A stretch of DNA of 63,889 nucleotides, filler included, from Kipferlia bialata (Eukaryota), in NCBI GenBank assembly GCA_003568945.1. It is 6 parts of 6 records of this genome, joined end to end, with 100 filler letters (N's around TTAATTAATTAA, not from the genome) between each part and the next. Parts side by side here need not be neighbours in the genome. Positions count along the whole stretch, not along the records: positions 14,032 to 27,959 come from BDIP01000882.1; 5 more parts are not named here. The stretch is one strand, 5' to 3'. Shown in pieces: positions 14,032 to 45,210 of the stretch. The notes under the pieces were generated by a model. The model was not told the DNA's origin, did no database searches, and saw only the letters and a list, made by a program, of their open reading frames with translations. The position numbers and the translations under genes are program-made. Each line of letters starts with the position of its first letter. Position 1 is the stretch's first letter.

Positions 14032-14084
14032 TCGCGACCCTCTGCTTATGAGACAAATGCTCTAACCAACTGAGCTACGGTGAC
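14032..14084 (-). tRNA. tRNA-Met (CAT), probably elongator; 3' end cut off by the contig edge
   Basis: The minus strand reads GTCACCGTAGCTCAGTTGGTTAGAGCA TTTGT CTCATAA GCAGA GGGTCGCGA. The D-arm/A-box and an anticodon stem-loop with CAT are present; the T-arm is lost in the gap. Confidence 0.85.
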
Positions 14085-15730
14085 GTTACGGCGGAATGAC
14101 ATGTATGATTACTGGACCGTTCGGTGACGAGTTGCCACGTGGAATATGTGAAAATACTAGATCACTGCACTTAGGTAGTGCAGTGACGACTTACGCAGCT
14201 GGAAATTCTATTGTATCAGGTACATTCTTTACAGAGCTACGGTGACGTGCTCTTAAGATGCACATATAGTACTGGACCATCACAACGCGCTAGAAATACA
14301 CAAGAGACAATGCAATGACCATCAGCGAAAGGCAGCTACTGAAGCAGCATGGGATTGTCTAACAATATATATGCCGAGCTACGATGACAATCTCTAAACG
14401 ACATGTAGGATAACTGGACCAATAACATCGTCATCGTCATCGTCATCGTCTGAGCTACGGTGACATTCGTCTGTCATGACATGTAGTATTATCATAATAC
14501 TGTGTTACTGGACACTGATAATCTCTGAAAACGGACTTCCAATCGTATACTGGCCCCATACTACACTAAAGAGAGTGTTACATTCAGAGTCATCACCAAA
14601 TGTGGTGTTCTTAGTACACATATGTACAAAGAACAATGTCACATTCTCAAGAGTAGATGCAACAGACGACTGTCAGCAGCAAAACTCATATTCAGTGGTG
14701 TATTCAGTGTCAGTATTCATATACTTCATATACAGTGTCTCAGGGTGACGTGTGACTGTCACGATGATTAGGACTGACTGTAGGTGATCACTGTCAAATT
14801 GTTCAATGATCCTCAACGTGAGGGCCTGAAGTGATATTGTGACAGTTAAAGTGTATACAGCTGACTATGTACAGGGGATCACCCTGTAGCGCAGTGTATG
14901 ATGAGAGAAATCTTCCAAGGCACATGTTGAGTGATTGATGTCCTCACTAGATGAATAGTATATGTTATATAAAAAGTATCAAAATAGATGGCCTCTCAGT
15001 CTCGAAGGCCGCCTGGTTCGCACTCCGCTCTTCGAGCTCATCGATGAGCTAGTATGGACTTGTCTGATGAATAGATTCCTATCGTCATCGTCATCGTCAT
15101 CGCCATATGTGTCTGAGCTACGGTGACGTGGTCCCATGCGGTATATGTGATAATACTAGGTCAACAGGCCTTGCAACGTTGTCGTGTTTCTTCCAGGAGA
15201 TACATGCAGTGGCACAAGCCAAAACAATACGGTAAAACTTCACAAGAGACAAGGCATTGAACTTCATGAGGCAGCTACTGAAGCTGCATGTACTTGCCTG
15301 ACCAATAGATATACATATCGTCATCTTCATCGCCATCGCCATATATGTACCTGAGCTACAGTGACATGGGGGCAGCGTGATATGTAGTAGTACCGAACCA
15401 ACACAGTAACCAGAGCATGATAGAGCATGGAGGTAAACGGTGATATGCCGCATATCAGATATGCGGGTGCCACCACATATAGTACTACTGGTACTGGTAC
15501 TGATACTGGACCTTAATTTACAGGCGTGGAGCTGTCAATGTACCATATGATGTACCCAGAGGGCCAGTGGATCCAAATCCAGAGCCTTTTGGGCCAGAGG
15601 TAAAACTACACCCGAGACAGGGCAATGAACATCAGGAGAAGACAGCTACTGAAGCAGCATAACTTGACTGACCAATTAGTATACCTGTTGTCATTGTCAC
15701 CATATGTGTCTGAGCTACGTTGACGTGTTT
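14085..15730. repeat. Degenerate repeat region upstream of tRNA-Met containing copies of the tRNA 5' end
   Basis: (t)gagctacggtgac-like copies start at 14234, 14376, 14451, 15114, 15352 and 15711. A second module gagaca..gcaatga..cagctactgaagc.gcat occurs at about 14304, 15245 and 15614. Confidence 0.8.
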
Positions 15731-16404
15731 CCGAAGAGAATATATCATTGTACAAGGCACACTTGAAATTCCAGGCATTCGATTCAGACAAGGGCGAAAC
15801 AATAGCGGTAGAGCTTGTACAGACTGAGATACGATTACATGTCAACGTGTCATATACTTGATTCTTCTAGAACCGCTTACGGGATTTCTAGGCACCAGAT
15901 AGCTCGAGGACTCCATTCAGAAGCCTCAGGAAGTCTCTTTGGCTGGCTTAAAAGTGGAATTTATACACAAGCTTAACCTAAGCTGAGTGACGAGTCGTCA
16001 CTGACGAGGTTTATCGTGTATGTGGTGGTACGAAATCCGATCCCAATTCAATACTGAGCAACTCTGACGTACCAGTTAACTAATTATGTATCACTGTGAT
16101 GGAAATGAAAGTCAAAGACTGCTTGGAATTGGAATTGCATTATATACCAATACCGGTGCCGCATCACGCTACAACGTATCAACACATACAATCTATTCAT
16201 GGTTCTACTATGCTACACTACACACAACACTAATAGTATACAACCTACACACATCGATTCACACACACGTACTATAATCATACTACCCTATGGACAACAT
16301 CCACCGTCGCCCCCTCCTGTACTGCTACCTCTTCATACTATTCTAGCACCCACTATAACCGGAGCAAGCATAGTAAATGACCAGTATAACTAGCAACAGT
16401 ACTA

Positions 16405-19400
16405 CTAGTCGTCAGCCACCACCACCGGGATTGCTCTAACTGTGCTGCCAACAGGACTTGAGCTATCCCACATGTTGAGCTTGAAGATCAGTGGCTTAGT
16501 CGGTTGGCAAGCGTAGTAGCCGGGCTCTCCTTCGAGGATTCCATAGTCAAAGCTGAGCTGACCGTAGACATCAACCCACCAGGTAGCAGAGGAGTCAGTA
16601 TCGACAGTGTAGATACCCGGCCCGGAGATCCACTCGAGCTGCTCCTTCTCGCCAGAGATTGACTGCCATGTACATGACGTATCAGAAGCACCGTAGCAGC
16701 ACATGATCTCAGCCTCCAGCCCCATAGAGGTGACGCCATCGATACCCTCGTCTGCATACTCCCTTACTACACGAAGCAGAGGGTCAGTATCGTCTGTGGT
16801 CCAGGTGTCTCTACCCACAGTGGCAGAGGTGTAGCCGGGGAGGAACATGGAGGACACACTGTGTGCCTTGAGGGTACCCACATCAATCATGCTGTTACCA
16901 GCAATATCTCCAACCTCAAGGGTCATCTTGTTGAGTCCCGAACAGACAGAGTCCTTGGTGAGGGTGGCAACTGTCTCAGTCGTCTGTCCATCAACAAAGT
17001 ATGCAACAGCTAGGTCAAGACTCTCAGCTGAAGAAGCAACTGTACCATAGACAGAGAGTGTACCGGTGATTGTGACACTGGTGCTAGTAAGGGTGATATC
17101 TCCACTAGCGGACTCGAGAGTGAGTCCGCTGGCAGCAGAGAGCTTCAGGTAGTCTGCACTGTAAACGGACCAGTTCTGTGTTCTACCGTCATCAAACCTC
17201 TGGATCATCAGCGTGCTACTACTGGTGTTGTCCTTGACAAAGACTCCATCAGTAGTCAGTGACATATCATAGGTGGCACCGGTAAGTGTCAGAGTGTCAC
17301 TCGACGATACTACTGAGTCAGTGAACAGTCCAGCAGAAGTGAAACCAGCGGCAAGGTTGACGGGGCTGTTGAAGGTGATTTCGGTGAAGTCACCACTGAC
17401 CGGCAGACTGACACTGGACGTGCTCATGTTACTGACCTCCATAGTCATGGTTGTGATGCCACCGTCGGCCTGGAGGGGCAGGTCGGTGTAGATGTAGCCA
17501 CTGGAGAAGGCCATGTCGCATCCACTAGTCTGACCGTCCAAGCATATTGAGGGCGTTATGCCACCTTCTGCATATATGTTCTGCGCCTCTAGCTTGCCTG
17601 TCACAGACAATGCAGAGTCGATTGTGACATACTCTGCAGAGAGTCGGAGACCAGCAGCTACGCTATTGATATCAGTGGCCATCAACATAACGTCTATGCC
17701 AGTTGCAGATTCACTTGGCATCTCAAGGACACTGAGCTTGGCAGAGTTCGCGGTGAGTGAGAGAGAGCTTGATGTAAGAGAGAGCGACTGCCCCTTAAGA
17801 GACAGACTACTCTCAGCCTCAAGCTCGATACTCATACCAGTGACGTGTGTCGTGCCGCCAGAGGTGAGCCAGGTATCCTGACTCATACTGCCGAGGCCCA
17901 AGACTTCATAGGAAGTCACGTTCCAGGAATTGGCTGTCGTGTCCTCTAGGACTCTCAAGGCACTGCTTCCACCATGTGACAGATAGAACTCAGATGCCAC
18001 AACAGCACCGAGGTAGTACCCTCCAACCACCATAGAACCGGTGGCTAGCTCAATATCACCGGTCACAACGAGGTCACCACCAACAGAAACCTCCCCAGAG
18101 GTAAACAAGACGTCGCCACTAACACTCAACGGCGCCTCAGACACTGATGACAGGACATCTACCTGGAGTGTCTGTGCCTCCAGCAGGTTGTCAATCTTCA
18201 GATTGCCAATGTTGACAGCCGTGGTGTTAAGAGACATCACTGATGTGCCACCGGTGACAGAGAGGTCAAGAACACCCGTGGCTGCAGTGCCAGTAATGGT
18301 ATCCGTGTAGAGACTGGTAGCGTGGAGATCTGAGGCTACTGTTACGTTCAGAGAGCTGACGTAGAGACTCCGGTCATCGGCAATGTTGAGATAGGCCTCA
18401 GTCTCTCTCTGAGACTCCAGAGCCACTGTGACATTCCCACCTGCACCACCAGCAGTGAATGTAAGGGGGTAGTTGTCCGAGAAGAGGACACCTCCAGCGA
18501 GAGTGATGTCTCCCCCAAAGCGGGTGTTGTCAGCGACAGCAATCTCTTCGTTAGCAGCTATGGTGACGACGTCTCCAGCTAGGGAGATAGTGGAAGCAGA
18601 GGTCACATAAATGTCACTGGAGGAGGAGAGTCCAGAGGCGTTCACGTCCATCGTAGATCTTCCATCTGTGACAGACAGTGAATCAGCAGAGAGCTGCCCA
18701 CTGACAGCCACGTCACCTCCACACGAGAGAGACCCCTCAGTCGCACTCATGGAGTATCCAGATACATCCTCCACAGCCCTTGTCTCAATGACATCACCAC
18801 CGAACCTGAGTACAATAGTATCCAAATAGATATCCTCAACCTCAGCCTCTAGTGCAGAGAGGTATGGTACATCGATATCACTAGAGACAGTAAGGGATCC
18901 CTGGATCTCCACACTGTCCTCAGCAGCAGAGAGGAGGGGAACATACACCTCCTCGACTTCAACCTTAGTAGACATGTCAAGGCCCTTCTCAAGCACTGCG
19001 GGCTCCTCCTCTTCTTTTTCAACCAGCACCCACCCCACACTGAGTGTAGAGGTGTTGAGATCGCCATTAACATCGACTGTAGAATGCTCCACATTGAGGA
19101 GAGGCACCTCAGAGAGAAGGTCTGTAGTGTCAATGGGGATACCGGCACCGGCAGAGAGAGTGCTACTATGGAGCAGAGACGCAACCTCTACATCCCCAGA
19201 CACAACAACAGCTGTGTCGTTCAGAGACATCATAGGAGTCCGGTCCTCTGCACTCAGCGAGAAGTCAAGGCTCCTGGCACCATCGGTCCCATAGATACTC
19301 GTCATAAGAGCGTCGGTCTCCACAACAAAGTACTCATCTGCAGAGACAGTCACGTTCTCAGCAGTGAAGGACATGTTGCTATCGGCATTGAGGGAGAGGT

Positions 19401-22400
19401 CGAAATCAGCAGAAACTATGAGATCGATGGATGAGTAGACCTCCCATGCCTCTGGGTTGCGATACACATCCAGGTACTCACTACTCTCCTCCAACCATAA
19501 GGCTGCTGTGTAGATCTCATTGGCGGCGAAGTCACCATCACACACGATAGCCCCATTAGCAGCCGCAAGAGGTATTGTGTCTTCCTCCTCCTCACCCTCC
19601 GCCTTGGCAGTGAGTCTCTCTCCAGAAGAGGTGTCTCTGAAGCTGACAGAGTCAACAACAGTGACACCAGCAGAGAGTGTGCCGTTGATCTCCACAGTCT
19701 CGTCCTGTGCCACAAGAAGAGGCACATACTCTGCCTCAGTAACCTCCTCTACCTTAGTAACACTGAGGACCTCCAACTCCAGACCACCGTCACCCTCTTC
19801 AGAATCAGTCTCCTCGGTAGCTATCTGTACCCAACCCACGTTGAAGCTGGTGGCATTGAGGCACCCATTGACAATAACAGTGTCATCCAGTGCACTGAGA
19901 AGGGGGGTCACCTCTACACCCTCACCCTCAGTCACTGATGGTATCTCAGCGCTCTCAGTAATGGCCACGCCATAACCGACAGAGAGGCTCTCCACATAGA
20001 GCTCACTCTCAAACACTGCGTCACCCTCAACGACAAAGCTATCATCCGCAGATACAGTCACGTTCTCACCCGTGAGGTAGAGTACACTGTCAGAGGTTAT
20101 CTCGAGGTCTAAGGAAGACTCAAGGTACCACTGAGCCCTACCCATGTAGAGGTCGAGGTAGTCTCCATCCTCACCAGACTCCAGTGAGATCTCGTTAGAG
20201 TAGACTGTTCCGTCTACGAGGAAGTCCCCATCACAGGAGAGAGTACCATCGTCAGCATACAAAGTGGCGACTACTGGTAGCTCCTCTCCACCCTCAGCCT
20301 TAGCGCTGATGTCTTCAGAGTCCCCAGAGTACATGAAGCTGACAGAGTAGAGGTAGGTGTCCTCAGCGTAGAGAGAGCCATTGACTGACACTGTATCATC
20401 CAGAGCGGACAGGAGAGGTACATACTCGTACTGGCTGGTCTCAGTCTCTCCCTTAGTGGAGGCGAGTACAGGGGCAACCTCCGCACCCTCCACCTGCACA
20501 TACCCCACATTGAATGCTGTGGTGTTGAGACACCCGTTGACTACGACAGTGTCCTCCAATGCACTTAACAGAGGGACAGAGGTGGTCTCTAGGTCCTTTG
20601 TCACGGCAAAGACCTCAAGCATCTCATCATCTCCAGATGGAATCGGGTCTACCCCAATACCCACAGAGAGGCTGTCCATCTCTACTGATGTCGGGACATA
20701 CAGGTGGTCTGCATAGAGTTCTAACATGCTACCCTCACTGGCTGCGAGGGAAAGTGTGTCCAGACCAGATCCCTCCTCGGATGCACTTACAGAGAGAGAG
20801 AGAGAGCCTGTCACTGAGGAAAGGTCTGTGTCAATCTCGAGTACAAGTGGCTGCTCAGAGGAGTGGATCCTGCTGGTGGCCACTTCCCCTTCGACACTGG
20901 CACTACCCGTTACAGTGACCCCTCCAGAAACATCAAGACTGTCTCCAGTGAGAGAGAGATTGGGAGTCCTCTCAGAGTAGCCGTTAGTGATGGCGAATCC
21001 ATCCATAACCTCTAGTGAAGAGGCCTCAAGTGTGATATGTCCTAAGGTGCTACTGGCTAGGGTGGTGATCTCTAGACGACCCATCGAGGAGTCGGGGAGA
21101 GAGAGCAATGGCTGGTCAGTGTTGATGCTGCCATTGATTGTGAGGTCACCAGAGATGTCTAGGGTCTCCATAGAGACAGGACCAGACATTGAGATGCCAC
21201 GGTCACTGACATCGAGAACACCATCTCTCACCTGGAGTGTCTGTGCTGCCAGGTCAGCCTCTACTGTCAGAGAACCCTCAACCTCTACATCATCAGCAAA
21301 GCTCACTGAGTAGCCCACACTGCCAATAGAAACTTCAGAGGCGGACTGTCCGATCAGGATACTGCCACTGGCGTCGAGTGTAAGGTCAGTAGTAGACTGG
21401 ATGGTATCGCAAACAACATTTGACGAGAACACAGTCTCATCAGCGGTGACAGCAATGGAGCCGTCCTGAATCACCACTGAGGTAGTCCCACTGGTAAGTG
21501 ACACAGTATCTGCACTGATATTCGCAACAGTCAGCTCTGTGGCAGATAGAGTGCCACCGGAGATGGTCATATCAGTTGTGGTTATGCCATCTGGTACATT
21601 CAGGGAACCAAGTATGTCAACACTCTCTGGAGACAGTGAAAGAGACACTGACTCAACGGCGAGAGAGATCAACGCCTCAGATGCAATGGCAACACCGGCA
21701 GTGGAGATCTCAACAGTGTGAGCTGAGGGAGTGGATCCACCCTCTACAACTCTGGGGTCACTGACCCCACTGACTCCAAGGGTAAGACCATCTGCCTCTG
21801 TGCCTAGGATAGTCACAGCTGTCACCTCCCCCAGCACTTCCAGCGTGTTGGATACTAGCGTGTGACCAGCACTGTGTGACAAGGACACAACCTGAGCGTT
21901 GGATCCAACAGTCACATCTCCGTTGAATCCAGTAGCTCCCTGTCCGGCATCTAGAACAAGATCTCCACCCCTGGTACTGTCACTAGCACCACCGACCACG
22001 GTCACAGTACCACCTGCGACACCGGTACCGGCAGAGCCAGCGATGGTGATATCAGTCTGGCTGGAAGAGGATGCAGCAACAGAGAGAGTCACGGGGGTGC
22101 CCTCAGTACCAATGACCAGGTTCTGGAGCAGGTGAGTATTGCCATGGGCAATCAACAGCCCCTGGCTACTGGGGTTGATCTCCACAGCTCCCTGGGAGTC
22201 ACCTGCCGCCCGCCCGCTGTCCTCAACACCAGAGAGAGTGAGAGACCCAGGGGTATCAGAGGACCCCATAGCAGAGGCAGCACTGGCCCTAGTGATAGAG
22301 TAAGTATCAGTGGCTGTTGTGGCATCGCCAAGCACAAGGTTGGCGCCAGCGTGGGTCAGAGACGAGGCCTCGAAGGTAGTGGGGCCAGTCACAGAGACAC

Positions 22401-25400
22401 TGTTGGAGAGCAGGGAGAGGTTGTTGGACACGCCTCCAATGCTCACACTAGAGGTGGTACCAGTACCAATGTAGAGTGCAGAGCCACTGGAATCCAGAGA
22501 GAGAGCGGTGTTGGCAGTGTCAATGGAAGTGCCCACCACTAGAGGCACATTGATGGTAGCACTGCCATTGAGCAGCTCAAAGCTACCACTACCGGCCTGC
22601 AGAGTAGCGTAGTGGCCGGCAGCATCTGTATCTCCCATGGAGAGAGAGACAGTGGCGAGGGTCTGCAGTGGGGACAGCGTGTACTCGCCAGAGGTGTGGG
22701 AGAGAGACCCTGCTGCAAAGACGAACCCGTCTGAGCTGGGACCCTCGGGGTAGAGGCCGAGGGTAGGAGAGAGGGTGGAACTCGTTATGGCAGCTGCATC
22801 GGTACTATCTCCAAAGTACATGGCACCATTCGATGAGAATAGTCCATCAGAAGAGGTCAGAGAGCCCACAGTGGAGGCACCAGAGACAGAGAGAGAGCTG
22901 GGGTCAACGGGATACTAGGTAGACAGTATATATATCAGTATAGGGTGAATAGTACTGACCTCACTGTAACGGAGTCCATGACAAACTCCCCAACTGAGAG
23001 TGCACCAGTCACAGACAGATCTCCAGAGACAGAGGCATCTCCACCTGTGGTTGGTGATAGTGATTATATATATATATATATATATATAGTAACGCCTTCT
23101 TCGTTTCACCAATGAGTATATGCAATAAGTACGTTGAGGCATCTCCACCTGTGGTTAGTGAAAGTGTATGATAATACCACCCGACATATATAAGAGTGCA
23201 CTGCCATCTATATAGAGAATATGAGGCAGAGGCATCTCCACCTGTGATTAGTGGACTAAACTTCTATCTGAAAACGAAGCAATGGCTGTGATTCACTCGA
23301 CCACAGAATATGCTACCATTGAAATAGATTGGTAGTAGTATACGAGGAAGAGAGAGAGAGAGAGAGAGAAAGAGAGTACCTACTAGCAGGTCCCCATCTA
23401 ACGAGGAGTCACCACCCACAGAGAGAGAGGAAGGAACACTCTTGGACCTGAGATATTAGAAAACTACGCGCTTTCAGGATGAAGCTACACGATATCAAAA
23501 CAAAGAACAACATATCCTTCACGATGAGTAACTATACCTTGTCTGAGAGGGTGTGCCTATCTGGACAGACTGGCCAGAGGGGGCAAGGGTTACAGGGCCA
23601 CCTAGAATGAGACGGAACTATTAGTACCAGATATATGTCTGGTAAAGATACCATAGACATTTTCAATTATAGGTAGAGAATGTGTACCTAATGGGTCCAG
23701 TGTGATTCCGTTATATGCCTCTAGTACATCACGTAGGTATCAATATGCAATCATGCTAAGTTGATAATCGATACCTAGTGGATCCAGTGGGATTCCGTTG
23801 TCTGCCTCCAGTCCCTATCTATATCTATCAACATATACATACATGTATATACTCAAGAGTCGAGTAAGGATATACTAACCTAGTGGATCCAGTGTGATTC
23901 CGTTGTCTGCCTCCAGTGTGAGGTCCCCCTGTGCCTGGTTGGTGATGGTCGCAGCTGGGACAAATGTGCCTAATGGTGAGATACTAGTGGTGGTAGCAGA
24001 GAGAGCGTCAAGCAGTTAGAACACACAGTTTCGTCAAATATCACATGTCTCATCGTTTGACCCTATACGTATATATAGTGTGAATTCCTGATGACATGTG
24101 TATAGATGGCACCTGACTCATCATTGGACCCCATCTGGATGGTGCAGTGGTCATCACCATCTAGCCTGGTGTTATATGTATATAATCACTTCCTAATGGG
24201 TATATAATACTATAATAGATTATATATTGTACATTCACCTAATGTATGGTATGTTCCTTGTGTTGACAATCTCCAGAGAGGCACTGGGTATCTAGTGTAT
24301 GTATAGTATAATTCTATTAGGATTAGTATATATAGTGTGTATACCTGATGTGTGGCATGTCCCTTGTCTTGACAATCTCTAGGGAGGCACTGGGCAGAGG
24401 GGTGCCGATACCCACACACTCAGAGTCTGAAGGGTAAATATGTATAAACTACCTATGTGGATATAGGAAGAGAGATAGGGAGAGAGGGCCGATACCCACA
24501 CACTCAGAGTCTCGGCATAAGTATGTATACACTTATTACATAAGCTTAGCTAGGAGAGAGAGAAAGAAAGGGAGGGAGAGAGAGAGAGATGAAACCCACA
24601 TACTCAGAGTCTGGGCATTTGGTATGAAAACACATTCAATTCTCTATATGAGCGGTAATTATATGGAGAGGGGAATATGAACCATAATTATATAGAGAGG
24701 GGAATATGCCGGACGGGCATTGTCAGTTATATACCCGGGTGACATACTGACAATGAATACCGGTATAAAAAAGATAGTATACCTGGTATGACAGTGAGTG
24801 TTTGTTCACCTCTCCTGAAACACATAGAGAAGGACGTATAGAGTATATATTCTATATATAAATATATATATACCTGGAATGACTGTCAATGTCTGCAATC
24901 TCCACTGCCGCACTGTCATCACTGACAGCCAGAGTATATAGAATACGTATATACATATACATTAGTATATATACTATATTATATACTTATATACCTGGTA
25001 TGACCGTTAATGTCTGTGCAATCTCCACTGCCGCACTGTCATCACTGACAGCAAGGGTGTAATATACACATATATTTATATTAGTATATATACTATATTA
25101 TTTACTTATATACCTGGAATGACTGTCAATGTCTGTGCAATCTCCACTGCCGCACTGTCATCACTGACAGCCAGGGTGTAATATATACTCATATATACAC
25201 GTAAGTATATGTACAACAGTAAACTTATAGAAATATATACCTGGAATGACAGTGAGTGTCTGTGCAATCTCCACTGCCGCACTGTCATCACTGACATCCA
25301 GAGTATATATAATACATATATATACATTAGTATATATACTATATTATATACTTATATACCTGGAACAACCGTTAATGTCTGTGCAACCTCCACTGCCGCA

Positions 25401-26783
25401 CTGTCATCACTGACATCCAGTATTTTGAATACATATATATATACACTAATGTATTAGTATATATATATTGTATATATATATATACCTGGTATGACAGTGA
25501 GTGTCTGTGCAATCTCCACTGCAGCACTGTCATCACTGACAGCAAGGGTGGCCAGGACAGACGACATGGACAGAACTGCAACAGCCCCTGGTATTAGACA
25601 AATCCAAAAATAGATACACATATATATTATCATATATACTGAGACAGCAAGGGTGGACAGAAGAGACGACATGGACAGCACCGCAACTGCGCCTAGTGTA
25701 AGAGTCCGAACATACATATATATATATACTGATACTGCCACTGTACCTAGGCCAATTGAGACCACGAGCAGCACCAGTACAACTGCCAGGGTGACACACA
25801 TGCACTGCGATGTCTTGCTAGAGACATGTGAAGTGTTAGTAGGAGTGTAGGATGTGGTCTGCTTGGTGGTCTCTGGGTACTCGGGAAGAGGGGCAGCCAC
25901 ATAGACCTATTATGAGTTAGAATAGAGACTATATGAAGATAGGACGAGTCATAGTATATATATACATAGACAGTATACATATCACATACAAACCTGAGAA
26001 GGAATTAGAGATACCAGAGGCACTGTAGTGACTGGGGGCTGGGGAGGCATAGATCCAACATAGTATATATCTACCTATCTATCTATCTATCTATATATAT
26101 AGGTATGTGTGTGTATATAAATCTACCTGTGGCACTGTAGTGACTGGGGGCAGGGTGGCTGGGGAGGGCATGGGTCTGGGTCTGGACCCCTTGGCCTTGG
26201 ATCCTTGCAGTGAGTACACATCTATTCTATACAAACATATATACGTATATATATAGACATACATATACATTGGAGAACATGGACCCCTTGGCCTTGCTAC
26301 CTTGCAGTGAGTGTACACTGAATAATACACCAGGGTATATGCATATATACACACTCATATACATACATATCCTTAGGGTATGGGTCTGGGATTCTGTACA
26401 CACATATATATACCCTTCTTTCTGGCCATCGGCATGAAAATTGTAAATACTCTCAAATAGTAACGACACAATGGTATTTATGTATAAATATAAATATATA
26501 TATATATATATCCATACCCTTCTTTCTGGCCATCGGCATGGGCAGTGATGAATTCCTACAAACAATACAACTGATCACTCTTTTAGTTATACGAATAGTT
26601 ATAGCTCTAGTTCTCACCCTTCTTTCTGGCCATCGGCATCGGCCTTGGAAACAATATGAAAATAATAGACTTGCATATGAGTACAGTATCAGCATCATAT
26701 AGTACATACCCTTCTTCCTGGCCATGGGCATTGGCATGGGCATTGGGAGTGGAGATGATGCCGCTGAGAGAGGGGCCTATACC

Positions 26784-26814
<31 letters not shown>

Positions 26815-27690
26815 TAGTATGTATGATCCTTATTAATCTCACCCTTCTTCCTAGTCATCGGCATTGGCATTGGAAGTGGAGATGATGCAGCTGAGAGAGG
26901 GGCCATTGGAAGAGCACGACCAACACTAGGGGTCAGTCAAGGTAGAGAGACTCTGAGAGTGTATACACTATAGTATATATATATATATATATATATATGC
27001 ATAACATTGGAAGAGAATTATAGATTATAGAAAACAGTCCAATACTATGGGGAGAGAGTGCTTCTGCCCATAGTAACTACATATCTAATATCTTCATTAT
27101 CTACACATAGACTCTAACCTGGGTGACGCTCTGTTGTTTCCTCTCCCCACACTGGGTGAGTCTCACACTCTTCAATAGAAATATTGTTCATATAGTATAA
27201 AGTATAGTATAAATAGTATTCATATATTGTATGTATATATATACATGTACTCCTGACTGTTTTGAGTATATTCCTACCTGGGTGAAGCCCTTTCCCGTCT
27301 CTAGTGAGACTCATAGTATATATAGTACACACATTTCTATACACACACACATATATATATAGATACCAACCTGGGTGAAGCTCTGCTGTTCCCCCTGCCC
27401 ACACTGGGTGAGGCTCTGTTGTATGGTACTGTGGTGACAACAGCTCTCCTATTGTAAGAGTGGATGTACCTATATATATATGGGTGGGGATACAAAATAT
27501 TTCCATTACCATTAATGACAGGTATATTTATATATATACCTAGTCTGCACAGGTGGCAGGGGACTAGACACAGGCAAGGCCACGGGCTTAGGCATAGGAA
27601 GGGGGAAGGGCATGTTGCCACTTTTGCCCTTCTTGGCACTCTGCTTCTGCACTATCTGGCTTTGGATAGTGAAGACATCATCCCTGAAGT
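16405..27690 (-). CDS. Giant (>2,400 aa) type II membrane protein with a beta-strand-rich, acidic, tail-fibre-like ectodomain; 5' end probably incomplete
   Basis: The terminal exon of about 6.5 kb (ORF 16405-22869, acceptor near 22898) is S/T/G/V/D/E-rich with repeats. Small upstream exons encode a Pro/Lys-rich N-terminus (PLPMPMPMTRKKG), one hydrophobic segment (CVTLAVVLVLLVVSIGLGAVAVL, about 25550-25800) and the motif VGIGTPLPSASLEIV. Confidence 0.8.
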
Positions 27691-27915
27691 GAGCTGCGTA
27701 TTTACATTTGCATGTAATAACTACTGTGATTTAACAATCTGACTCTACTAGTAGAGAGTAAGACATCATCTGTGGAGTGAGGTACGAATGAATTATTCCT
27801 TACATGTATATAACTGGGAGCGATGCCTGTTCAAAGAGATAGGGATACAGTATCAGTATCAGTGAGAGAGTCGTTCCAACTCCTGTTTAATGGGTATGGA
27901 GATGGAGAGAGAGAT

Positions 27916-27959
<44 letters not shown>

Positions 27960-28332: not shown

Positions 28333-28565
28333 GCAGAGAGAGGGAAGGAGAGGGAGAGAGTGGTTGTTTTACCTGGTCTGAAGGGGTATATGTGACTCCA
28401 TGTATGTGCCTGATTGTGTTCGGCTTGGTTCAGGGTGTTTTTGTACTAATGTAAATGTTACCCATGTGTTTCGATGGCAGAGTCGTATGGTTACTACAGT
28501 ATGTCTCTAGTCATGGTCTCTCTCAATGTCTGCAAATTCCTATTCTATTCTAACACACTGTCTCC

Positions 28566-30365
28566 TTACTGCTGTGGGATGGGCTCAGTCTCAGCCTCTG
28601 CCTCTGCCTCTATCTCTGCCTCCTCCCCCCTCTGTGCCTGCAGTCTCTCCCTCTCGTCCCCAGGCAGCAGGGCCCAGATGGCATCGGGGATGGACGGGCG
28701 CTCCTTGGTGCCCTGGGGTCAGAGAGGAGGCAGAGGAGACACTATGCACACACACGTGAGATCAATACCAATGCATCTCTGCCATACCTCAGCATACACA
28801 TTCTCCCAGAAGAGCGACAGCTTGTCCAGCTCTGCCGCCTCAAAGGCTAGGATGGAGTCGCTGGTATAAGGGACAGGTAGGTATACACATGCACCTATCC
28901 TCATATCACTCTATACACAACACCCATACCGAGTCTGGCTGTACCAGCTGTCTGCCCAGCAGTACAGCTTGGCGTGGTATGTGACGAAGTTGTTGAACAT
29001 GGCCTTCTGGACACTGTTCTTGGCAACCCTGAGGATAAGGGTGAATAGATATAATATACATGAGCATGTATAGACACTGACACTGATACTGTTCTTGGCA
29101 ACTCTGGCGGTGAGAGGATGGGTATATATATATATATCATGAGTGACTATGTCGTATATATGCATGTCCCCTCACCTTCCGAGCCCCATGACCTTGAGCT
29201 CAAACTTGACCAGCTTGTACACAGTCACGCAGGGGGTGCAGGTGGACTGGGGTGGGGGGTGACTGAGAACTATGAGGATATGAATATGGCCATAGTATCT
29301 ACTCACCTCCCACCCCTTAGTGCTGACTGGCACTCTCTGGGCAAGCTCAGGGGTGGTGAAGGTCTGCCTGAGGTAAGGGTAACGAGGAGAGAATAATAAT
29401 AATACTATGAACCTGGTACTGGGTGATGGAACAATCCCAATACGAGTATCTACACCGATAGGAAACATCACTCAACTAATCGAACGAAACAGAGATAATG
29501 ACACCACGTACTTGCTGGGGTCTATGTCGTCCCCGTGGTGGGATGCGATGTCGACAGTGTATCTCTGCACAGTGGCTAGCTCGGCCTGGGGGTCAGGGGG
29601 AGATGCGTGTAGGAAATGATACATACATATTACATATAGTGACATGCCTCTGACAGGTTGAATGGGTTTGCCGTGTCTCTGTCCTGGCCCCTGTCCCCGT
29701 CTATCAGTCTGGTGTGCAGCTCAAAGGTCAGCTTCGACTTGAGGAAGGGGGAGCTCAGCTTGTTCACTGGGGTGAGGGGGAGGAAAGTGCACCACTAGAA
29801 TATGTAATGTATATACTTCCTCCGTACCGACGTGTGTGGATGCGTTGATGCAGAACTCGTTGACGAACCTGGCCCTGGCTGGCATGATCTTGGTCACCTT
29901 GCCTAGGGTGAGGGAGAGAGGCTAGATGGGAGTGGGGGTCACTTTAGATAGTGTACAGAGTAACATGTGAATGCACTGACTCACCCTTGGGCAGGTGGAT
30001 CCTCTTGAATGTAAGCCGGGCATCCCTGTCCTCGTGTCTGATGCCAACCTGGGGGAGGGGCGGGGGAGAGAGTATGCATAGAAGAGTGTGGGGTTAAGGG
30101 GTTGGGGGGAGGGGGGCTATTCAGAGCGTCATTAGCTGGTATGAATTGACCGTTCTCCCCTCTTTTGCAATCAATCCAGTATACACAAGCATATAGAGTG
30201 CACTAGGCATACACATGTAGCTAACTGACTCACATTGACTATGGGCTCGATCCCCTCTGCACTGGTGCTGTCCTCAAGGGAGGCCCTGGCCACCATGTAG
30301 TGGTGCCCCCTGTCGGTCTCAGCAGCGGTCAGGGGGAGCGTGATGGCATACTGGAACAGATACAT
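28566..30365 (-). CDS. Phosphatidylinositol transfer protein (IP_trans/PITP family), multi-exon
   Basis: The N-terminus MYLFQYAITLPLTAAETDRGHHYMVARASLEDSTSAEGIEPIVN matches the PITP pattern EYRI.LP....EY.....YMVA..S.E....GEGVE. Later exons read TVYKLVKFELKVMGLG and NNFVTYHAKLYCWADSWY (cf. F..FHRQ.FCW.D.WY). Confidence 0.85.
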
Positions 30366-39480: not shown

Positions 39481-41860
39481 ACTGTAACACCACTGCCCTG
39501 ACCTGGCTGTCGTAGTCTAGCTGCATCTGCACGGCGGCCAGGAAGTCATCTGGCTTGCCTATGTCCTTCCACATCCCTGGGGTGATGATATGGTATGGTA
39601 TGGTATGATATGATGATGATATGATGATGATGGTATGATATGATGATGATGGTATGATGATTGTATGATAAGGATATGGTATGGTATGATGATTATGGTA
39701 TGATATGATGATGATATGATGATGGTATGATATGATGATGGTATGGAGGGGACACGCACAGGGTATGTGTAGTGTATACACGTGACACTCCTACCTCTGG
39801 CACGTGGAGATATACCAAACCAGTATCAGTATCCAGTGAAGATAGGCATAGCACTCAGTAGGAATAGCCCTATATAAGAGATTATCAGACACTGAGTGTA
39901 TGTGCAACAAGCCCCCCCACCCCCACCCCTACCTGTGTGCTATATATATATATACCTGTGTGCTGGTAGCAGTACATCTCCCCCTTGGCAGCCACCCTTG
40001 GGAATATCTCTCTCTCCATGCTGGTGGGCTTGAGCTGGGGTGGGGGACGGGTACTTGTATACACATACAGGGAGTTGAGGTCCCACCTTGCCCATGTCCA
40101 TACTTGTACATGTGTACATCCGCATATAGTATAGGTATGTATATAATGATACCTTAACCATATCCAGCACTGACGGCTCTATGATGTACACACCCCCATT
40201 GATGAGGTTGCCAACATACGTCTGGGGCTTCTCGACAAACCTAGGGGGTAGGAACATACCAACACAACCAACAACAATCATGATAGCAGATACACACTCT
40301 GCCAGCAGAAGCACAAAAGTAGTGGAACTACTCAGTATACAAATACACTTCTCTATTAATACTATTGACATGCAATACAGGGGGTTGAGGGGACCTAGAG
40401 ACTGTCTTGTTCTGCTCAGAGGGTATACATACATACATATATACACATCCATATATACCTAGACACTGCGTTGTCCTCGTCACACACTATGACGCCAAAG
40501 CGGGACGGGTCTTCGACACTGGTGCCCATGATTGATATCATACCTGGGGGGGGAGGACACACATACACGACAGGGAGGTACATGTGTATACATATACATG
40601 TACATATATATAAATGAGAGAGACACGGAGGGCCCCGGCTGTCCTCACCTCCCTTGTCCCTGTGGAACTGGATCATGGCCTCGAGGGGGTAGTCGCAGAT
40701 GACATCGCTGGGGTCAGGGGTGCATGTAGTATGGGGCATATGATATATATATATATATGATATATGATATATATATATATGAATGGACATGGGAATATGG
40801 GATACAGGCTGTATATGATATGATTCAGGTATAGGACATGGGACATGGCATCAAGACGACCAGAGTGACAATCCACATCCATGCACCCTTGGCCCCATCA
40901 ATCTCAGAATCAATCTCAGAATCAATCTCAGAATCAATCTCAGAATCAATCTCAGAATACATCCCTGTACCTGTCTCAATACATGTCTCAATATATACCA
41001 CCACACCTGTTGCACACAAAGAATGGCTCTGCCTCGGCCCCGTTCTCCGGCATCAGGAGGGGTCTGGCCAGGGCTAGGGGGCCTCCTAGGGATTGGGAGT
41101 ATGGGGAGAGAGTCCAAAGAGGATCAGAGGGGAGAGAGGGATAAAGAGAGAGAGAGAGAGTCAGCAGACGGTGTGGATAGCACCCAATGGCACAGTGACA
41201 CTTTGTCTGAATATATATAAATATACACACATGATCTGTATATACATATATATATATATATATATGCATACATACCTGTCCCTAGAGGCTTTGGCTCGAT
41301 AGAGGACACAATCTTGACATTGTACTGGTCCTCCCACTTGCTGACATACCCTGCCGTAAGTACCCTGACATACAGTATCACAAGACAATGGGTGATTAGG
41401 CAGTGATTATAATATATACATGTATATATAGAGAGAGAGACAGATGATAAGGCGTGTTGAGTATCGTACACACGAGTGAGTGATATACAACAGTGAGGTG
41501 GGATATATGGACCGAAACATAACCAAGTGCCCCTGTCACTGTCACCCACATAGAGACATAGAGACATAGATAGGATACGCAGAATGAGGGACCGATGGTC
41601 ACACTCACCCTGCAGGGTCTGGGGGCAGTAGGACACGGCCAGGATGATGTCGGTCACACCCACACCGGCCAGGGCAGCTATCTGGAGCTGGGGTGGGTAA
41701 CGGGGGGGGCAGCATGGGTCCACTCAATCATAGTATAGTCATATACATACGATATAGCATAAAGTGTATACTGTATAGTATGCATACTGATACCTCAATC
41801 ATGGGTGTGTTGCAAAACTCAATGAGGGGCTTGGGGACAGTGATGGTCAGGGGGCGTAAC
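37640..41860 (-). CDS. GMPPB: Mannose-1-phosphate guanylyltransferase (GDP-mannose pyrophosphorylase); first exon(s) missing at the contig edge
   Basis: Exons read RLRPLTITVPKPLIEFCNTPMI, DIILAVSY, EPKPLGT/GGPLALA, EPFFVCNSDVICDYPL, VEDPSRFGVIV, RFVEKPQTYVGNLINGGVY, TSMEREIFP and GMWKDIGKPDDFL. The hexapeptide tail ends ...VLPHKALKESIWEAQIVM*. Confidence 0.93.
39580..39745. repeat. Intronic (GAT/GGTAT/ATG) compound microsatellite
   Basis: Visible run of gatgat/ggtatg units inside a GMPPB intron. Confidence 0.85.
40897..40958. repeat. Intronic 12-bp minisatellite (atcaatctcaga)x5
   Basis: Perfect tandem copies in a GMPPB intron. Confidence 0.9.
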
Positions 41861-42821: not shown

Positions 42822-45210
42822 CCATCTCACTCCCAGAGACTACCTCACCGGCGTCATCTCCAAGACCACCCTGTACCATGCCACCCCAGCTGGGTTCATC
42901 GCACACGAGGCGTCCAGAGGGAGCTATGCAGACATAGGTGAGACCATACTATTGGTAGATGCTCTCCAATACTCTAACCCAGCCTCTGACATCATCGAGT
43001 CCCAGCCTGACCTACTCATGGGTGGGGGCAGTGAGTATCTGTCGAGTCTGCTGGGGACAGCGGCACAGCCCAGTACGGACAGGTGGGTGGATAGCTCCTG
43101 AGTAGAGTAGAGAGTAGAGAGAGAGTATAGTGTTGATCATCTATACTCATACGCAAGGTCGTCGCTTCCAGGCCTGACCACGTCTCTCCCTGTCGTGGGT
43201 CTGTACTCCAGTGGGTACATGCATCAGGTAGGGGGTATCATGAAGACACACAGTGTGCAAGCCTCGTAGCGTCAGTGATTCACTGACATACGCTTCAAGA
43301 GAAACCCTTGTCATCTTCCTCACCACCAGGTTGTGCAGCGTGATCCAGACGCATCAGAGACACAACCTACATTGCCTGAGATGGCATCTGCCGCACTGGC
43401 TGTGATGCAGGTATGTAGATTATATACCACAGTACTGTGTTGTGTCTAGTTCTCTGGCAGTGTTGGAGGAATGCAAGGGATGGACGAAGTGACTGTGCCT
43501 GTCTTGGAGTGTTATGGGTGCCCACCTCAGGCTGCTTCCGCTGAGCAGGGTAGGCCCTTCGCCCTAGTGATAGAGGCCTCATTCCCAGACCATGGTACGA
43601 TGAATCATCATTGATGATACGTCATTCAGTATTGGACTCCATACAAGAGTGTCATCACACTATGCATAGTGTCCTCCCACACCAGGTAGCCATGCCAACA
43701 ATGCCAATGTTGCCATGACAGAGGTATGAGTGATGAGATACCCCCAGATAGCCACTCACTCTCTACTATAACTGACAACAGGTCATTGAGCTCCACGAAG
43801 CAGTGCGGGACACCCTTGACGCCATAGACCTGTCCAACACCCTTCTGTTAGTGACAGCGGACCACGAGACAGGTGACTTCATTAGTATCTCGCACAGTAG
43901 TCCCTGGCGATCTATTAACCTATGATTGCATACTCTGACCACTAGGCAAGCTCGACCTTAACGCCACTGAGGTAGCCGAGGCACTCGCTGCCTGTGGTGT
44001 GTCTGCCCCAGCTGCCACTGGATACAGAGACATAGACACAGTGGCACAGGCCAGGCAGGACAGGTGGGGGTATGATGCCACCAGTTTAGGGATACTCTAC
44101 CGATACCTCTCTGACCCTAGAATCGATGCGTTAGGTAGCTCCTACTCCTGGGGCAGTGGGGGACATACGTCAAGGTATCAGAAGTGTCATTGCTGAGAGC
44201 TGTGTAGCGTATCACTACAACTGGATGAGGAGAGAGCGTGGGGCATACACCCACTAACCCAGGCATGTCCTTCTGGCTGGCAGTGGTCCAGGATCAGATG
44301 CCATAGGGGGACTCAACGGGTGGCTGGGGTCGCACAAAGGTATGATTGAATTGTCTTATACCGATTTTGACCAAGCAAGTGTGTGTGTATAGGCAGGGGG
44401 TCTGTATCCACTCTCAGAGTGGACCACTCTGGTTATGTGTCTAACCCAGGAACCGCCCAGATTCTAAGGAGTGTTGCTGGTGATGGCTGGACAGTGTCTG
44501 CTGACTATGGTAGTCCCTCTGTCCACTCAGTCTTTGAGGACGGATACACATGCGCCTGTAGCATAGGGGAGATTATCGAGGAGGACTGCTCCTGCGATGT
44601 ATATGGGGAGAGGGTGTACTACCTGTCACCAGTGGATGAGTTCGGAACACCCCTGACCTCTGAGCCCATGGGTACGTGGTATGCATGCCCCACCACCCAG
44701 AGTCCAGTGGCGTGCACCAACAGGATACACTGGAGTGATGAGTCAGCCACATATGCCCTCACCCTGGAGACACAGGAGCTGCGTAGGGTGTGTGCAGATA
44801 CCAACGGTGCCACTCCATGCAACATATCTGTGACGCTCTACCCAGACAGTGTGTCTACAGTTGGGGCATTCACCCTTACTATACCGGCCGCGTGCACTCA
44901 CATTGAGAGCCCTCCAATGCTGGTGCCTCTAGTCTTGGCTACTGCGGTCATTACAGTACTCATAGTGGGAGGCATTGCAGTCTGTGTACGCTCTGCATAC
45001 CCAAAGAAGGTCACGGTCCTCGCTACAGGGTTAGAGAAGGCTAACGGGATACCTGAGGAGGGAGGCACGCAGGAGTCTTGCGTCGCTGCAGTTAAGCAGG
45101 TATCCATTCCAAGAGAGGTCAGAGATGCGAGTTCATTGGGAGAGGGTGACGATGATGTGTGTATCGAGATGACCAGTGGTTCTGGTAACGGAGGAGTGCT
45201 CAAAGCATAA
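42218..45210 (+). CDS. Alkaline phosphatase with a Cys-containing C-terminal extension and a single TM helix; 5' end off the contig
   Basis: Motifs TDSAAAATAISTGQRVQNG (catalytic Ser), YHATPAGFIAH..SR, DLLMGGG, PTLPEM, VIEASFPDHGSHAN, TLLLVTADHETG and GGHTS. The last exon has the TM segment LVPLVLATAVITVLIVGGIAVCV. Confidence 0.9.

Follow-up and report, generated by a model that had tools for sequence, protein, structure and literature searches.

Among the closest described parallels to the protein discussed here are the surface fibres of a predatory bacterium and a eukaryotic membrane protein. The non-S74 MAT fibres of Bdellovibrio are reported (PMC10769870) to combine a conserved base and a trimeric beta-helix with capping loops, displayed at the cell surface, with small disulphide/Trp tips and an exchange of parts; glycan binding was shown for one member. 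The capping-loop consensus given there, V-G-x-G/N-polar-X-X-P-X-X-X-L (the printed form is perhaps short by one position), is common to MAT fibres and MyRF. In MYRF, a membrane protein of eukaryotes, there is a triple beta-helix like that of phages (PMC8326128), so that such helices are already known in eukaryotic membrane proteins. The subject here is KIPB_004215, a gene in a 63,889-nucleotide stretch of DNA from Kipferlia bialata (the window; six pieces joined end to end), and its 2,502-aa product, P0002, which the source record names “hypothetical protein KIPB_004215 [Kipferlia bialata].” No paper on KIPB_004215 or on Kipferlia fibre proteins was among the literature matches listed. KIPB_004215 is a real, transcribed, and spliced host gene; its product may be a signal-anchored trimeric surface fibre with a binding tip, MAT-like (non-S74) in action, a tentative reading that in our judgement falls a little short of probable.

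The gene model, whose joined exons give P0002 exactly, is as follows (window coordinates):

16405..27613, minus: whole gene KIPB_004215, 13 exons and 12 GT-AG introns
27613-27540, 27448-27371, 26925-26843, 26203-26127, minus: exons 1-4
25906-25747, 25587-25486, 24426-24345, 24165-24113, minus: exons 5-8
23969-23880, 23601-23538, 23447-23380, 23044-22960, minus: exons 9-12
22897-16405, minus: exon 13 (large), 6,493 bp, 86% of the coding sequence

All 12 introns fall within the first 339 codons, a richness normal for this organism, for which the genome paper gives 124,912 canonical introns (PMC5874029). Introns have a GC content of 36% and exons 54%; the GC content at third codon positions (GC3) is 0.55 in the small exons and in the last exon alike, so the large exon is compositionally native. 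Splicing was assessed from contigs of two runs of one sample over 15600-26200, which covers nine of the 12 introns (not 1-3); the “RNA-type” label of run X2 is the tool's guess, no run being recorded as RNA, and stretches without RNA cover count as no evidence. Joints found in X2 and absent from the DNA run match introns 5, 7, 8, 9, and 10 exactly (5 of the 9 within the stretch), including 25586^25746 for intron 5, which splits the hydrophobic segment described below. The large exon, too, has RNA contigs over much of its length, at a depth of 3-7. It is from these joints and this cover that we take the gene to be transcribed and spliced; the first-pass annotation had called it a host gene from its 5′ introns, and the joints, the GC3, and the presence of paralogues on other contigs agree. 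Outside one block shared with a paralogue, DNA depth is single-copy, like that of the flank. The continuity of the membrane exons with the large exon rests on the gene model. The reading frame continues without a stop upstream of the annotated Met (27613), beyond an AG at 27685-27684 that could be an acceptor; with the piece (14032-27959) stopping at 27959, another 5′ exon, and an N-terminus longer than annotated, may exist.

Partial exon copies with a splice site at their centre are numerous in the introns of 22960-27450. The exon 3′ end and donor are repeated downstream for exons 2, 3, 4, 6, 7, and 9 (with exon 6 present in six such copies that are 87-94% identical), and the acceptor and exon start are repeated upstream for exons 4, 7, and 12. 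This 4.5-kb zone holds 21 of the window's 51 short-range duplications. The RNA-type joints bypass the exon copies for introns 5, 7, and 9.

The predicted protein is divided as follows:

25802..27613, minus: exons 1-5, basic Pro-rich N-terminal part, aa 1-139, predicted cytoplasmic
25545..25801, minus: hydrophobic segment, aa ~140-172, split by intron 5, predicted type II signal-anchor
24380..24415, minus: VGIGTPLPSASL, aa 196-207, capping-loop-like motif of triple beta-helices, fitting the consensus in PMC10769870
22870..23447, minus: GD.SL.GDL.V stretch of 6/12-residue period, aa 288-347, in exons 11, 12, and the start of 13
21979..22762, minus: 784-bp block, aa 385-645, near letter-for-letter in a paralogue, two-copy in the genome
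21823..22122, minus: GG.V.V.GG / GGDL.L.AG module, aa 598-697, single here, many copies in the paralogue P0014
18500..20679, minus: three tandem ~230-aa acidic repeats, aa 1079-1805, found by self-comparison
16408..16881, minus: C-terminal tip, aa ~2345-2502, with 4 Cys and 6 Trp, putative binding domain

Residues 1-140 are 21% Pro with a net charge of +14. The sole strong hydrophobic peak (Kyte-Doolittle 2.98 at 144-162; the next best is 1.56) is preceded by 60 residues with 6 K/R and 2 D/E, and followed by 60 with 3 K/R and 10 D/E; the same pattern is found in the paralogue P0005. By the positive-inside rule, these flanking charges point to a type II anchor, which would leave the N-terminus inside and the C-terminal 2,330 residues outside. 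The outer part is 25% Ser/Thr, 13% Asp/Glu, and less than 3% Lys/Arg, for a net charge of -277, and sequons are weakly enriched (22 vs. 16.2 +/- 3.4; 31/500 shuffles).

A repeat zone of about 2,150 aa is followed by the ~160-aa tip. The pattern G[DNSTE][LIV]x[LIV]xG occurs 10 times in the protein (0.6 +/- 0.8 in shuffles) and [LIV]x[LIV]xGx[LIV] 24 times (3.4 +/- 1.8), counts reached by none of 500 shuffles in either case. Hydrophobic residues are paired at a spacing of i,i+2 and scarce at i+3 and i+4, a helix-type hydrophobic pattern is depleted (2 vs. 11.6 expected), and Gly autocorrelation is positive at lags 6, 12, and 18 (0.04-0.05, standard error about 0.02); together, the pairing, the periodicity, and the motif excess indicate short strands and Gly turns without helices. 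Each acidic repeat holds two VPLLSA..D.V..NG.L cores, the second and third copies being 50% and 41% identical to the first; no relationship was detectable between these repeats and the GG module. There are 17 Cys in the 2,502 residues, and Asn makes up 2.8%. A Giardia VSP or diplomonad Cys-rich protein was considered and rejected: none of the 17 Cys is in a CxxC motif, and the anchor is near the N-terminus rather than C-terminal.

Much of what the first-pass annotation had described is therefore present: the basic Pro-rich N-terminus, the single transmembrane segment, the Cys/Trp tip, and the quoted motifs VGIGTPLPSASLEIV (at 196), GGDLVLDAGQG (649), GDLTINGSI (922), and GDLVVTGDI (1946), at one copy each. 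The short-strand/Gly-turn repeats it reported are likewise well in excess of shuffles, over a zone slightly shorter than the 2,200 aa and more it had given them. VGIGT..P...L.V is not a repeat, since the full VGIG..P...L motif occurs once in P0002; and the acidity, the three long repeats, and the paralogues had been missed.

In the Bdellovibrio bacteriovorus non-S74 MAT fibres (Bd2133, Bd1334) we find the same bacterivorous host, multi-gene family, conserved base, and beta-rich shaft. P0002 shares with them the capping-loop motif (one copy), a small Cys/Trp C-terminal tip, and the lack of S74, and the Kipferlia family shares the presence of at least three genes and an exchange of parts, in the 784-bp block. 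MAT fibres differ in starting with a signal peptide and then a conserved ~130-aa beta-rich domain, while P0002 has no N-terminal signal peptide: it is eukaryotic, intron-split, 2.5 times longer, and very acidic, with an internal anchor at 140-172 behind a 140-aa cytoplasmic part, and its trimer and binding are putative. It is not an S74 fibre, and would be MAT-like without being a member of MAT (no signal peptide, no sequence match).

The S74-chaperoned phage and giant-virus fibres, with 12-residue repeats of GDASLN.RLFVG type, resemble P0002 in its 6/12-residue repeat (288-347) and in VGI[GN]...P...L, but the likeness is confined to about 60 of 2,502 residues and P0002 lacks S74. The examples compared (P0008, P0010, P0012) are Asn-rich (about 10%), in contrast to its low Asn and high Ser/Thr; we take them to be giant-virus proteins, the records being unnamed metagenomic proteins. 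MYRF has the same loop motif and provides the precedent for a phage-like triple beta-helix in eukaryotes, but it is a transcription factor whose short helix is cytoplasmic and precedes a self-cleaving ICA domain; in P0002 the helix would be about 2,150 residues long and outside, with no ICA. Autotransporter-type adhesins (Fap2 9qe7, pertactin) are also long beta-solenoid surface adhesins, a likeness seen in a monomer model and in a TIGR02601 match of one paralogue (both below); these and BspA differ in that P0002 has no beta-barrel or leucine-rich repeat, has an N-terminal anchor, and matches no such family. Borrowed Trichomonas surface proteins of BspA/Pmp type can likewise be likened to it. 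The Kipferlia family would be distinguished by its type II anchoring with part of the chain in the cytoplasm, by having no S74, and by its mosaic paralogues.

A full HMMER scan with residues 192-697 against 1.84 billion representatives gave 15 matches at E 0.001; residues 698-2204 were covered by word-index searches, tblastn, and profile libraries. Five of the 15 are from Kipferlia, including P0002 itself. The paralogue count that the first-pass annotation had proposed as a check comes to at least three genes with a common base, modules, and tip, and differing lengths, as judged by sequence comparison; several of the records are fragments. P0005 (KIPB_012948), 62% identical over the base, has a WW domain, a basic Pro-rich part, a membrane segment, and the VGIG motif (VGIGTPLPSASL in P0002). 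The others are P0003 (KIPB_014727), P0006 (KIPB_011504), and P0014/P0018 (three locus tags). The 1,878-aa partial P0018 appears under KIPB_002501, 004294, and 006255 on three contigs, either by recent triplication or by assembly redundancy. In P0005 the WW domain (residues 17-46, 31.8 bits) is followed by Pro-rich sequence in the predicted cytoplasmic part, which suggests a link to trafficking or the cytoskeleton; a missing 5′ exon of KIPB_004215 might also hold one.

The GG motif occurs 3 times in P0002 and 21 times in P0014, and the GG modules of P0002 and P0006 align with a score of 183 (shuffle maximum 76). The P0002 tip is homologous to the P0006 C-terminus (score 99, against a maximum of 58 in 1000 shuffles), the Cys/Trp frame being kept at only about 32% identity. 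Between module and tip lie about 190 residues in P0006 and about 1,650 in P0002, a difference of about 1,450; that the tip is kept between paralogues of differing shaft length would count in favour of a fibre.

The exon boundary at 267/268 of P0002 is where P0005 stops and P0003 starts, and is common to the paralogues. The 784-bp block has a DNA depth of 818-852, compared to about 490 elsewhere, and an RNA-type contig passing through it continues into KIPB_014727-like sequence. The loose-end sequence of this contig, which shares 21979-22762 with the window, is the end of P0003, and P0005 and P0003 together (547 residues) need 1,641 of its 1,686 unlike bases. From this fit and the shared boundary, the two are probably fragments of one gene, B. 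Eight of nine variant sites in the block are at codon position 3, and the paralogues sharing it are only 36-62% identical in its flanks; a near-identical block between such flanks points to recent gene conversion or segment exchange between paralogues, and so to mosaic exchange.

The 10 matches outside Kipferlia are unnamed or loosely named metagenomic repeat proteins. Eight match PHROG tail or tail-fibre families, nine match Bactofilin, four have the VGI[GN]...P...L motif, and two have a weak S74 match with SDxxxK. Reversed and five shuffled queries gave no matches, so that the outside similarity is motif-specific. No named MAT protein was among the 15 matches, 11 of the 14 non-self ones having been looked up by name. 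The best rows below threshold are repeatedly fibres or spikes: for P0002, the 4s36 baseplate protein (E 0.069) and a fibritin-labelled PHROG (E 0.0088); for P0005, a tail-fibre PHROG (E 0.065, non-significant). In the Atlas, P0003 has phage hypothetical proteins as its neighbours (0.88-0.89), which is a lead only. PDB profile searches with A1, A2, and A3 gave nothing below E 0.04. Word-index searches gave one match (P0002 itself) among 7,987 scored and, in a second, one among 7,990; with the last 298 residues against 523-2,000-aa proteins, none among 7,989. Pattern scans left no confirmed relative among the 74 candidates from metagenome contigs, the 0, 121, and 28 from viral contigs, or the 58 from GTDB genomes, and tblastn of P0014 and P0006 against phages gave no match. 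Identification of P0002 as a bactofilin was rejected (PF04519, 14.8 bits, against a cut-off of 27.9). The autotransporter strand repeat TIGR02601 is above its cut-off in one of five paralogues tested, the P0003 fragment (20.9 vs. 19.85 bits), and not in P0002, P0005, P0006, or P0014; a C-terminal translocator barrel had no Pfam or NCBIfam match.

On the reading favoured here, the capping-loop motif and the 6/12-residue repeats, as in S74-bearing fibres, suggest a trimeric beta-helix. Three chains of the 2,330-residue outer part would wind into a rod of phage-fibre type, standing on the cell surface by its single-pass type II anchor; the acidic, partly glycosylatable shaft would act as a spacer, and the C-terminal tip would bind prey bacteria or substrate. 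Where phage fibres are attached to the virion and those of Bdellovibrio to the outer membrane, the Kipferlia protein would rely on its signal-anchor, and it would begin to fold with no cleaved S74 chaperone, like the non-S74 MAT fibres. Repeat expansion and gene conversion would make the paralogues differ in their length and their parts. With three MAT structures as the scale (taking Bd3182 as 922 aa, from the construct end in the paper), the ectodomain would be about 66-139 nm long, as opposed to about 50 nm for a single-chain helix of assumed rise. A broader proposal, that a phagotrophic eukaryote turned a trimeric fibre derived from a phage or bacterium into a family of signal-anchored surface fibres with tails in the cytoplasm, reshuffled by gene conversion in the manner of phage tail fibres, seems rather doubtful; the family would then be the eukaryotic equivalent of the Bdellovibrio MAT repertoire for recognising prey, and possibly include a vane-hair protein.

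Several results weigh against a trimeric surface fibre. Masking residues 288-347 removes all 10 outside matches while the four Kipferlia ones remain, and the best single domains of the former reach only 12-24 bits. P0002 has no Pfam, NCBIfam, PHROG, or PDB match at E 0.001, no tblastn match among 50,697 phage records and 72,556 plasmids, and no match to PF13884 (Peptidase_S74) even at E 5; SDxxxK is absent from it, as from P0006. The acidic ectodomain would repel anionic bacterial surfaces unless cations bridge them. No RNA joint is listed for introns 4, 6, 11, or 12 in run X2 over 15600-26200. The TIGR02601 match of P0003, and a single-chain model of P0006, point the same way. Of the likeness to phage and giant-virus fibres that the first-pass annotation had seen, residues 288-347 and the capping-loop motif stand, without database support at E 0.001. 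A link to such fibres is thin, and descent from some prokaryotic or viral fibre, with no nameable donor, is about evenly balanced.

The P0006 model bears on whether each chain instead forms a parallel beta-helix alone, with the same topology and adhesive role, its fibre resemblance being a convergence of short beta repeats. The AlphaFold2 prediction (4-row alignment) shows short strands in an array, with loops of uneven length between them, matching single-chain parallel beta-helices at Z 9-10 (PL6 lyases, Fap2, and tailspikes, up to 10.2; root-mean-square deviation 4-6 over residues 1-330). The TIGR02601 score of P0003 and the Bactofilin row (E 0.035 in P0002, and in most outside matches) also suit a single chain. 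The model has a pLDDT of 42.6, though, and a one-chain prediction cannot reveal an intertwined trimer; moreover, irregular loop lengths between strands are found in fibres, and the capping-loop motif was described from trimeric proteins. It supports a beta-solenoid, in which one chain and three are not separable. The Foldseek check against fibre structures named in the first-pass annotation found nothing at E 0.001 with these low-confidence models: none in PDB and BFVD for P0006, where the best rows are tailspikes and tail fibres at a template-modelling score of about 0.2, and none for residues 2105-2502, where pLDDT is 36.4 and the tip has long strands only at low confidence. We regard the single-chain alternative as unlikely. 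About as improbable is a structural filament rather than an adhesin, either the tape-like hairs of the posterior-flagellum vane or a protective acidic coat: the low identity of the paralogous tips within a conserved Cys/Trp frame is as expected of variable binding tips, and contig depth is a poor measure of expression.

Two further alternatives concern the gene itself. The large exon might not be spliced to the membrane exons, or two paralogues might have been joined across the 784-bp block: introns 6, 11, and 12 are among those lacking a listed joint, no listed contig spans the block, and an in-frame Met is present within the large exon itself. The window letter at six positions of the block is that of the RNA contig, in which the paralogue dominates, and not that of the DNA contig; the block is therefore at least partly a collapsed consensus, and these positions may carry gene B letters. 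Set against this, all introns are GT-AG and in frame; the joint-finding tool skips the repeats beside introns 11 and 12, two of the missing joints; the paralogue keeps the same order of membrane segment, VGIG motif, and shared block; and RNA branch depth is 3-7 in both flanks of KIPB_004215 but about 92 and 113 in gene B, which argues, weakly, that the assembly paired the flanks correctly. We consider a wrong gene model quite improbable. Very improbable, and largely refuted, is an endogenous viral remnant or contaminant in place of a working host gene. One 6.5-kb intron-free exon and repeats like those of viral fibres might suggest it, but the gene has 12 spliceosomal introns (5 seen spliced), an intact 2,502-codon frame with uniform GC3, the single-copy DNA depth of its flank, and an exon boundary common to paralogues, and the window contains no long open reading frame of a viral family.

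Downstream of KIPB_004215, at the edge of the piece, is the 5′ part of a tRNA with a CAU anticodon (14084-14032, minus; Rfam 30.1 bits), and six degenerate copies of its 5′ end extend to 15724 (7 matches vs. 0.15 expected), a tRNA-derived repeat array over 14032-15724. The next piece, not necessarily a neighbour in the genome, contains the end of an intron-rich gene at 28500-29500 (minus), similar in one exon to a phosphatidylinositol transfer protein (E 0.0024, below the cut-off). Exon fragments at 39940-41723 (minus) resemble a nucleotidyl transferase (E 0.015), presumably a sugar-phosphate guanylyltransferase. A 279-codon frame at 44371-45210 (plus), with a Cys-rich part and a C-terminal hydrophobic segment, resembles a type I surface protein and matches no family above the cut-off.

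Kipferlia bialata is a free-living filter-feeder on bacteria, described in PMC11145212 as attaching by its rear end, drawing bacteria through a groove, and bearing tape-like hairs in a row on its posterior flagellum. Few surface proteins were reported from its genome after searches for VSP, cysteine-rich, and BspA proteins (PMC5874029), searches that the KIPB_004215 family escapes. Little is known of the molecular basis by which small flagellates hold bacteria or surfaces, and this family offers named proteins that may act in prey capture, in rear-end attachment, or in the vane hairs. If its members are both trimeric and homologous to phage fibres, a predatory eukaryote and a predatory bacterium would have converged on the same hardware and on mosaic evolution; if not, they would still be giant surface proteins of beta-solenoid type, forming an orphan family not described before.

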